From the NCBI GenBank assembly GCA_965203805.1, contig OZ241917.1, positions 4,384,001-4,448,000 of the forward strand: DNA of 64,000 nucleotides, in the 5' to 3' direction. Origin of the DNA: Candidatus Latescibacterota bacterium (lineage in GTDB: Bacteria; Latescibacterota; UBA2968; GCA-2709665). Shown here piece after piece: positions 20,783 through 21,334 of this stretch; positions within the stretch are counted from its first letter, which is position 1, and each line of letters opens with the position of its first letter. Below the pieces are notes generated by a model. That model saw only the letters and a list, made by a program, of their open reading frames with translations, searched no databases and was not told the origin of the DNA. The position numbers and the translations under genes were made by a program.

Positions 20783-20830
20783 CCCTGACCTCCTTAAGTT
20801 TGAGTTGATGCTCAACCCAAGGAGTCAGGG
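20783..20830 (-). promoter_or_regulatory. Hairpin sequestering the RNHCP Shine-Dalgarno
   Basis: RNA CCCUGACUCCUUGGGUUGAG-CAUCAA-CUCAAACUUAAGGAGGUCAGGG-C-AUG; SD AAGGAGG (20789-20795) lies in the 3' arm. Confidence 0.8.
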
Positions 20831-20857
20831 TTCCGTTCCCTCTTCCCTACAGGACCC

Positions 20858-21043
20858 AGGCTTGACTGCCGAGTGACAGATTCACCGCCGGCCTTTAGAG
20901 CTGGCGATTACTTCCGGTTCCACCTTCATCCGGGCCTGTTTCATCCCGGAATCCGAACCTCGACCGCTTTTGTGTGATTGTGGCGGCCACTGTAAGACAG
21001 GTTACCCACCCCCACCTTCCACCGGTAGGTGTACGGTCAGCCT
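20858..21043 (-). ncRNA. 16S rRNA head-domain (h28-h30, h41-h43) mimic in the RNHCP 5' leader
   Basis: Colinear 16S landmarks CCGGUGGA, UUACAGUGG, GUUCGGAUU, UGAAAC, AUGAAG, GGAA, AGUAAUCGC, GCGGUGAAU; helices retained through compensatory changes. Confidence 0.8.
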
Positions 21044-21067
21044 CACTGGCTGTGGCGTCGTCCCCTA

Positions 21068-21100
21068 TCAGGCAAGTGCAGGATATATAGCCAGTTTCAA
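21068..21100 (-). CDS. Putative leader peptide MKLAIYPALA
   Basis: GGAGGAG 8 nt upstream of TTG AAA CTG GCT ATA TAT CCT GCA CTT GCC TGA TAG; A/C-rich unstructured upstream region. Confidence 0.6.
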   Translation of the reverse strand: MKLAIYPALA

Positions 21101-21334
21101 ATCGATAGCTCCTCCGTGGTTTTTGGTGCTTTGTTGATGATGTAATAAGACGATTAGCTATTCACGAACTCCGAGCTATTCCGTTGAGCCGCCGCAGTAA
21201 GACTGTCTCGTATGTCGAAGTTATGCGAGGGCTTTGGATGGCCTCGGCGTGACGGGAGTCACTGCGCAAGAAGGTATTGTAAAACGCCGTGAAGAACGCG
21301 GTCATACACTGCAGAGATCGCCAGCGCATTCAGG

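Follow-up and report, generated by a model that had tools for sequence, protein, structure and literature searches.

What does a leader built around a miniature piece of 16S rRNA do in front of the gene for a small zinc-ribbon protein? The question is raised by a 64,000-nt stretch of Candidatus Latescibacterota bacterium (contig OZ241917.1, positions 4,384,001 to 4,448,000; hereafter the window), in which a 106-aa RNHCP-domain gene (20461..20781, ATG at 20781-20779; Pfam PF12647, E 9.4e-31) is separated from the previous gene by 553 nt; all window features described here lie on the minus strand. A candidate leader of ~335 nt occupies this gap from 21115 to 20782. The preliminary description of the locus had read in it, from 5′ to 3′, a Shine-Dalgarno sequence (SD), an upstream open reading frame (uORF) MKLAIYPALA ending in TGA TAG, an rRNA mimic, a purine linker and a hairpin over the RNHCP SD, and all five are found where it placed them. 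Its general idea of one device made up of a translated uORF, alternative helices and a sequestered SD is strongly supported by the 73-78 non-redundant leaders compared here. We estimate at about one half the probability that the leader is a conserved cis-regulatory, three-element translational switch of the RNHCP gene, in which the helix closing the rRNA mimic, the hairpin masking the start and the end of the uORF meet on shared bases.

The leader is inherited together with the RNHCP gene

RNHCP is rare among the relatives of the window's genome, being present in 3 of 61 genomes (the window's own included) and in none of 14 genomes of the same genus. We rely on a wider collection of 163 RNHCP loci in all, with 80 gathered from species-representative genomes and 80 from metagenomes, in which the leader was detected with a hidden Markov model (HMM) of its whole length. 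It lies directly 5′ of RNHCP in 101 of the 163 loci; 89 of these leaders span the full length, and the non-redundant set at 93% similarity numbers 78. The carriers belong to at least six phyla and include Chloroflexota, Planctomycetota, Actinomycetota, Bacillota, Alphaproteobacteria, Armatimonadota, Gemmatimonadota, WOR-3 and others, with Streptomyces kronopolitis and Stackebrandtia albiflava (Actinomycetota), Anaerotaenia torta (Bacillota) and Maritalea mobilis (Alphaproteobacteria) among the named species and cultured strains available in all four genera. As its features recur in homologous loci, those of the window's leader stand far above chance.

On a quick maximum-likelihood tree of the RNHCP protein (138 scored tips), the presence of the leader changes 4 times, against 39.7 times (minimum 32) when the labels are shuffled, and the genes 3′ of RNHCP are unrelated to one another in the 20 loci examined. 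Few changes on the tree and unrelated downstream genes together indicate that leader and RNHCP form a self-contained, co-inherited module. Two other origins were considered and rejected: a second copy or a recent derivation from 16S rRNA, as the leader matches itself alone in its own genome, and a phage origin of RNHCP, as a single RNHCP locus was found in IMG/VR.

The closing helix of a 16S-like domain shares a strand with the SD-sequestering hairpin

The center of the window's leader (20877..21028) is a miniature core of the 16S 3′ major domain, comprising h29, the h30 stem-loop, a shortened h41, h42 and h43. It matches Rfam SSU_rRNA_bacteria over model positions 926-1370 (60.4 bits, E 5e-16) and lacks 274 and 33 model positions, replaced by 8 and 4 nt, so that h31-h40 and most of h41 are reduced to short loops. 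The gathering score of this model is also passed by 6 of 20 other leaders, and no other family of Rfam 15 matched the leader. By this match, the leader resembles an rRNA protein-binding site, as ribosomal-protein leaders do.

Folding an alignment of 36 full leaders (A2) with RNAalifold yielded 55 consensus pairs, 44 of them with compensatory changes. All the rRNA-like helices covary, and the fold contains h29, h30, h41, h42, h43, a helix-28-like stem, a further helix P2 and an outermost helix P1, thus a conserved, covarying domain of the kind used as a sensor, closed by P1. The helix-28-like stem closes the 16S-like core (5′ strand 21035..21042, 3′ strand 20864..20870, with the window register set by eye; A2 columns 84-90 with 301-308) and shows many compensatory changes. 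P2 pairs CCAGU of the conserved GCCAGUGAG (21045..21049) with GCCUGG of the conserved AAGCCUGG (20856..20861), its pair types including CG25/UA8, CG31/UA4 and AU26/GC8 (A2 columns 77-81 with 311-316). Between P2 and P1 (20836..20855; A2 columns 317-369) lie a short hairpin, whose length varies by locus, and a conserved purine linker (..GGGAAGAGGGAA) with the consensus RAGAGnAAA. Two further segments were read directly from the sequence, GGGGACGACGCC downstream of the uORF stop region and 5′ of the 16S-like segment, and ACGGAACCCUG after the purine linker and ahead of the 20-bp hairpin.

P1 encloses both P2 and the 16S-like core. In the window, RNAalifold on A2 places its 5′ strand, E1 (UAGGG-GA-CG), at 21059..21067, directly after the uORF stop codon, and its 3′ strand, E2 (CG-GAA-CCCUG), at 20826..20835. 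Across leaders, the 5′ strand reads (C)AGGGGACG and the 3′ strand CGGAACCCUG, with an E1 consensus of (C/U)AGGG-GA-CG and E2 ~230 nt downstream. P1 is paired in 98.4% of the cells of A2 compared with 87.4% in shuffles (0/500), its covariation is 0.327 compared with 0.104 (0/500), and sliding one strand leaves at most 53.5% paired. At position -1:+1, 72 of 75 non-redundant leaders are paired (AU45, GC13, UA7, CG4, UG2, GU1), a count that averages 43 and peaks at 54 when the partners are permuted; +5:-6, the inner pair, forms in 74/75 (CG57, UA14, GC3). The internal loop of P1, GA opposite GAA, is invariant in 74-75 of the 75 leaders (21062-21061 with 20833-20831 in the window); it presumably resembles tandem sheared G-A pairs with one bulged A, a motif typical of protein or tertiary contacts.

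The last 5 nt of E2 are also the foot of the hairpin that sequesters the RNHCP SD. In the window, this hairpin (20783..20830) has 20 bp, a folding energy of -28.7 kcal/mol and a z-score of -6.3, and ends 1 nt before the ATG at 20781; it is made of an anti-SD arm (UCCUU, 20823-20819), the SD itself (AAGGAGG, 20795-20789) and a segment E3 (GUCAGGG, 20789-20783). The 73 leaders whose start is defined all fold the same hairpin, over the 50-58 nt that run from ACC to the start codon, with a median of -24.6 kcal/mol and z of -5.5; at least 3/4 of the SD is paired in 66 of them, and in 59 the hairpin ends 0-2 nt before the start. RNAalifold on a MAFFT alignment of the hairpin gave no structure, since the bulges differ in register; 77 instances were therefore aligned with a covariance model, R1 (alignment A4). 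There, pairing reaches 71.8% of cells compared with 62.5% in shuffles (0/500) and covariation 0.329 compared with 0.198 (0/500), compensatory changes occur at 17 of 20 pairs and sliding the partner strand lowers every measure, all of these numbers leaning in the hairpin's favor, because A4 was fitted to the very structure under test and its sequences are related. Even so, the stems differ outright from lineage to lineage.

The two helices compete for the same bases in nearly all the leaders compared: in 70 of 73, P1 can form with at least 6/7 pairs, and at least 3/5 of the shared bases are used in the minimum free energy (MFE) fold of the hairpin. One strand of P1 is thus common to the SD-masking helix, as in the design of P1-controlled riboswitches, and since the last 3-5 bases of E2 are the foot of the hairpin, P1 and the full hairpin are mutually exclusive.

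A short uORF ends at the closing helix

In the window, the uORF (21068..21100) starts with TTG, 8 nt downstream of the SD GGAGGAG (21109..21115), and runs over 10 codons to TGA, with TAG immediately after. In the 74 non-redundant leaders that have 70 nt or more of sequence upstream, we searched for frames with a canonical start, an SD of at least 4 nt located 3-12 nt upstream, 7-28 codons, and a stop between -16 and +2 of the invariant GGGG of E1. Such an SD-led uORF is present in 58/74 leaders, compared with a mean of 3.3 (maximum 10) when the upstream 70 nt are shuffled, a mean of 7.7 (maximum 17; 300 shuffles) when the stop region is kept and the 54 nt before it are shuffled, and 0 in the reverse complement. 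Both parts that the preliminary description had asked to see at homologous loci, the uORF and the anti-SD hairpin, are therefore there, the hairpin in 73/73. The uORFs have 9-12 codons in 51 of 58 cases and strong SDs, start with ATG (29), GTG (15) or TTG (14), and end with TGA (34), TAA (20) or TAG (4). Measured from its first base, the stop lies 5 nt ahead of GGGG in 34 of them and 2-10 nt ahead in all 58.

The peptides vary freely in sequence and share no arrest motif. Nucleotide conservation is confined to a weak GCUC at -14..-11 and to CUGACA/CUAACG ahead of GGGG, both read in frames that differ by lineage. As peptides vary and conserved nucleotides are read in different frames, selection acts on translation and its end point rather than on the peptide. 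GCUC carries ~0.4 bit per position at a fixed distance from P1 (the window has GCAC, in the region 21079-21076), and no pairing partner for it was found within the leaders. Three candidate pairings of the 3′ half of the uORF were rejected: with the 5′ strand of P2 (-7.3 compared with -6.8 kcal/mol shuffled, 4% at p≤0.05), with h29/h30 (-11.0 compared with -11.7 kcal/mol), and with the neighborhood of E2, where the best case reaches 15% of leaders and stays under the permuted maxima of 16-21%.

A simpler role for such a uORF would be to load ribosomes at the 5′ end, guarding the leader from Rho or RNases or aiding its folding, with no input to P1 or to the hairpin. The unconstrained peptides, the strong SDs and the length of these untranslated leaders all suit such a role. 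However, the stop, whichever of the three codons it is, sits 2-10 nt before P1 in 58/58 cases spread across phyla, 34 of them at -5, and mere loading does not need this placement; we regard this explanation as improbable. When a stop codon occupies its A site, a ribosome protects or unwinds ~12-13 nt on the 3′ side of that codon; with the stop at -5, such a footprint would thus span the whole 5′ strand of P1 and leave P2 free.

Conservation of the alternative pairings

The preliminary description had seen the switch elsewhere, in three mutually exclusive pairings, all of which can be drawn in the window. None of them is conserved among the 36 leaders of A2. The hairpin CAGCC/GGCUG (21052-21038), proposed to compete with the 5′ strand of the helix-28-like stem, is paired in 56.7% compared with 56.0% in shuffles (202/500). 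It does sit in the MFE fold of the window, where it would compete with P2, whose 5′ strand is part of it, and with the helix-28-like stem, and it is either lineage-specific or due to chance. Pairing of the uORF stop with a segment after the mimic fares no better (43.3% compared with 43.7%, 373/500), and that of the linker with the anti-SD arm reaches 53.3% compared with 51.0% (16/500), with a covariation of 0.169 compared with 0.144 (38/500). A register-free duplex test of the latter gave -5.8 kcal/mol for cognate and -5.81 for non-cognate partners, and this candidate was dropped. We likewise make no claim for a pairing of the GGGG of E1 with the anti-SD arm, which can be drawn in 81-85% of leaders and is a low-complexity G:Y pairing. 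The conserved competitor of the hairpin is instead P1.

These results bear on whether a ribosome stalled on the uORF, for instance by an antibiotic, remodels those three helices and frees the RNHCP SD, as in erm/cat-type attenuation, to which the layout had been likened. An SD-led uORF does precede a sequestered SD in most leaders (58/74 compared with 7.7 expected, uORF and gene being putatively on the same transcript), and in the window the pairings can be drawn and one of them is part of the MFE fold. The likeness ends at this layout: the pairings are not conserved, the peptides vary, the one conserved stretch close to the stop falls in different frames, and the 3′ half of the uORF lacks specific complementarity to the 5′ strand of P2 or to h29/h30. 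Moreover, constrained folding with the uORF footprint (E1) masked favors the closed hairpin, which stays complete and does not release the SD, so that release of the masked SD by a stalled ribosome through an alternative pairing was not found in silico. We consider attenuation of this type very unlikely.

Energetics and proposed mechanism

We then return to the switch between P1 and the hairpin, and to what each state would mean for the RNHCP start. If the 5 shared bases are taken away from it, the hairpin loses a median of 6.7 kcal/mol (from -24.9 to -18.4), and the unpaired probability of spacer plus start goes up from 0.45 to 0.59. When whole leaders are folded, E2 pairs on the E3 side with P>0.5 in 52/73 and the hairpin state dominates. 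The best fold with P1 enforced and the best fold with E1 masked differ by a median of -1.8 kcal/mol; since this gap between the two states is so small, a ligand or a ribosome could tip the balance. Note that thermodynamic folding models leave out tertiary structure and proteins.

We propose the following mechanism. The full hairpin would be the default OFF state. Closure of P1 around the mimic would strip ~7 kcal/mol off the hairpin and free the spacer and the start codon, giving a permissive state. P1 would presumably be stabilized by the tertiary fold of the mimic together with a bound factor, either RNHCP itself, suggested by the module-like inheritance of leader and gene, or 30S head proteins such as uS7, suggested by the binding site of uS7, which covers h28/h29/h41-h43. 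Given the rRNA mimicry, the ligand would more likely be a protein, or possibly an rRNA-binding drug. Whenever a ribosome terminates on the uORF, it would hold the 5′ strand of P1 in its mRNA channel, unwind P1 and return E2 to E3, such that each round of uORF translation resets the leader to its masked state. Under this scheme, an occupied mimic with little translation of the uORF would raise RNHCP synthesis, whereas busy translation would lower it.

Several points weigh against this switch, besides the leaning of A4 given above. The SD is still paired when P1 is formed, with an unpaired probability of 0.016 and a remaining hairpin of -18.4 kcal/mol, and for this reason 'permissive' may still mean weak expression. 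In nearest-neighbor folding, the probability of P1 exceeds 0.5 in only 7 of 73 leaders, and in the window the hairpin state is favored by 5.3 kcal/mol. The leader sequences are related to one another, so the shuffle controls overstate significance. A canonical uORF is missing from 16 of 74 leaders, several of which show a good SD and, after it, a CTG or ATA that shares the frame of the same stop. Sigma-70-like promoters 5′ of the uORF were detected in only 8 of 56 loci compared with 3.1 expected; in five Dehalococcoidales loci, the -10 box ends 29-30 nt before the uORF start. A search for sequencing runs returned three DNA-type entries, all from one study, and none from RNA, so that a common mRNA for uORF and RNHCP is putative, being read from sequence. 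Finally, the sign of control and the ligand are both ones that we infer.

The persistent pairing of the SD also suits a different logic, negative autoregulation by entrapment or steric block, in which RNHCP or a 30S head protein would bind the cis SD:anti-SD helix as well as the P1-closed mimic and would block the adjacent start. The liganded P1-closed leader would then be OFF and the unliganded P1-closed leader ON, with the uORF mainly keeping the mimic dynamic. Consistent with it, the start codon emerges at the P1 junction, rRNA mimicry is a hallmark of ribosomal-protein feedback, and leader and gene are co-inherited as a stand-alone unit, next to unrelated downstream genes in 20 loci, as is typical where a leader is bound by the protein of its own gene. 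This scheme needs three states, however, and explains neither the sharing of E2 with the foot of the hairpin nor the uORF stop abutting E1; RNA binding by RNHCP, moreover, is putative, the protein having no recognizable relative of known function. We hold it to be a tentative alternative, rather doubtful as it stands, that the tests run here do not separate from the P1/hairpin switch described above.

RNHCP start codons, leaderless genes and surroundings

At the place of the AUG, an actinobacterial-type lineage has a different codon: the RNHCP frame starts with AUC exactly there in seven loci (L050, L068, L075, L083, L117, L153 and L154) and also in L058/L071. The AUC starts lie at locus position 1486, 1501 or 601, with GGAGG ~7 nt upstream and no usable canonical start downstream. 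An in-frame stop is found 33 nt upstream in 5/7 loci, and in 6/7 no canonical in-frame start precedes the RNHCP frame before a stop; L154 carries an in-frame GTG at -66, and the stop ahead of it is at -159. Two other loci, L146 and L148, have GUC and ACG at the RNHCP start. These observations suggest a conserved non-canonical start codon of RNHCP in the AUC lineage. AUC start codons would be discriminated against by IF3.

In the 62 RNHCP loci without a leader, covariance model R1 found no match to the hairpin module (0/62). Many of these genes are placed directly behind another gene, often beginning a few bases past its end (L021, L034, L053, L110, L120, L126; L035, L039, L045, L056, L078; L033, L061, L064); by eye, the C-termini encoded ahead of them are CTP synthase-, FKBP-type isomerase- or YggS-like. 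Such adjacency to upstream gene ends points to a second, operon-embedded mode of expression for the RNHCP family. In two unrelated loci, a tRNA gene lies shortly 3′ of RNHCP (L011, 1872-1944; L041, 1987-2059).

The RNHCP product is a small zinc-ribbon protein whose sole family match is Pfam RNHCP. We found no sequence relative in the PDB below E 0.26, no NCBIfam match and no Atlas lead on its function. A search of longer proteins returned 2 relatives, one of which (P0122, 201 aa) is fused to a GIY-YIG nuclease domain (PF01541); this fusion hints that RNHCP is a nucleic-acid-binding module.

Around the window's gene, a Cro/C1-type helix-turn-helix protein is encoded 3′ of RNHCP (19578-19910), and a DUF4258 protein (108 aa, E 6e-15) overlaps the start of a family-less 71-aa open reading frame (21853-22391), in the layout of a toxin-antitoxin pair. 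This pair, the helix-turn-helix neighbor and the lack of RNHCP in the 14 genomes of the same genus suggest that the region is variable and possibly acquired.

Discussion

In its logic, the device is closest to translational riboswitches with a strand shared between P1 and the sequestrator, combined with an rRNA mimic and a leader open reading frame. In the thiM thiamine pyrophosphate and S-adenosylmethionine-type translational riboswitches, the 3′ strand of the aptamer's P1 is shared with the SD-sequestering helix. The RNHCP leader has the same arrangement, with a large conserved sensor closed by P1, the 3′ strand of P1 overlapping the sequestering hairpin, a folded sensor that would exclude the full sequestrator, and control predicted at translation initiation. 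It differs in that its sensor is a miniature 16S 3′ major domain, with a ligand that is probably a protein and not a metabolite, in that the 5′ strand of P1 abuts a conserved uORF stop, which would make the translating ribosome a second input, and in that it has no entry of its own in Rfam 15.

Translational attenuation of the ermC/cat type combines a leader peptide, alternative hairpins and a masked SD. Common to both is a short SD-led open reading frame upstream of an SD-masking hairpin, where the position of a ribosome can decide which helix forms. Unlike ermC/cat, the RNHCP leader has no conserved arrest peptide, places ~230 nt of structured RNA between uORF and masked SD, and precedes a regulated gene of unknown function; its ribosome footprint, judged from the geometry of the sequence, would hit the helix that competes with the mask, so that the predicted sign of control is the opposite.

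Ribosomal-protein autoregulatory leaders (S15, S8/spc, S7/str, L1, L20) mimic rRNA binding sites. The RNHCP leader likewise copies an rRNA protein-binding site in an mRNA and, as its sequence suggests, would act on translation of the gene that follows. However, RNHCP does not belong to a ribosomal protein family (Pfam RNHCP only), the mimic comprises five rRNA helices in ~150 nt and not one site, protein binding is putative, and a uORF and a P1/hairpin switch are added.

The leader looks like an undescribed translational switch. Full-text searches of the literature returned nothing on RNHCP (unrelated chemistry only), on PF12647 or on an rRNA-mimic leader of this kind. Term searches did not find the leader in the main text of one large motif survey (PMC11109978), and the main text of another (PMC5737381) has zero occurrences of 16S, rRNA, mimic, zinc or uORF; the supplementary motif lists of both lie outside these statements, and a prior listing there is possible. 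We know of no other design in which a terminating ribosome would land on the very helix that closes a protein- or ribosome-sensing domain and that also competes with an SD mask. Since every helix is assigned at base-pair resolution, compensatory mutants offer a direct test of the model.

A bolder interpretation, which we offer as speculative and judge on balance unlikely, is that the leader is a sensor of ribosome state built from a miniature 30S head, with two opposing inputs meeting on one shared SD-masking strand. Under limiting rRNA, free head proteins (uS7, for example) or RNHCP would assemble the mini-16S domain, and ribosomes terminating on the uORF would keep tearing open its closing helix when translation is busy. 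If so, RNHCP would be a new 30S-head-binding factor that the cell produces once translation or ribosome assembly falters, and the AUC start codons of one lineage would add sensitivity to IF3. As an rRNA mimic within an mRNA, the leader would be larger than any other known. The leader gives a handle on the function of the uncharacterized RNHCP family (PF12647), and it points to the neck and head of the 30S subunit.

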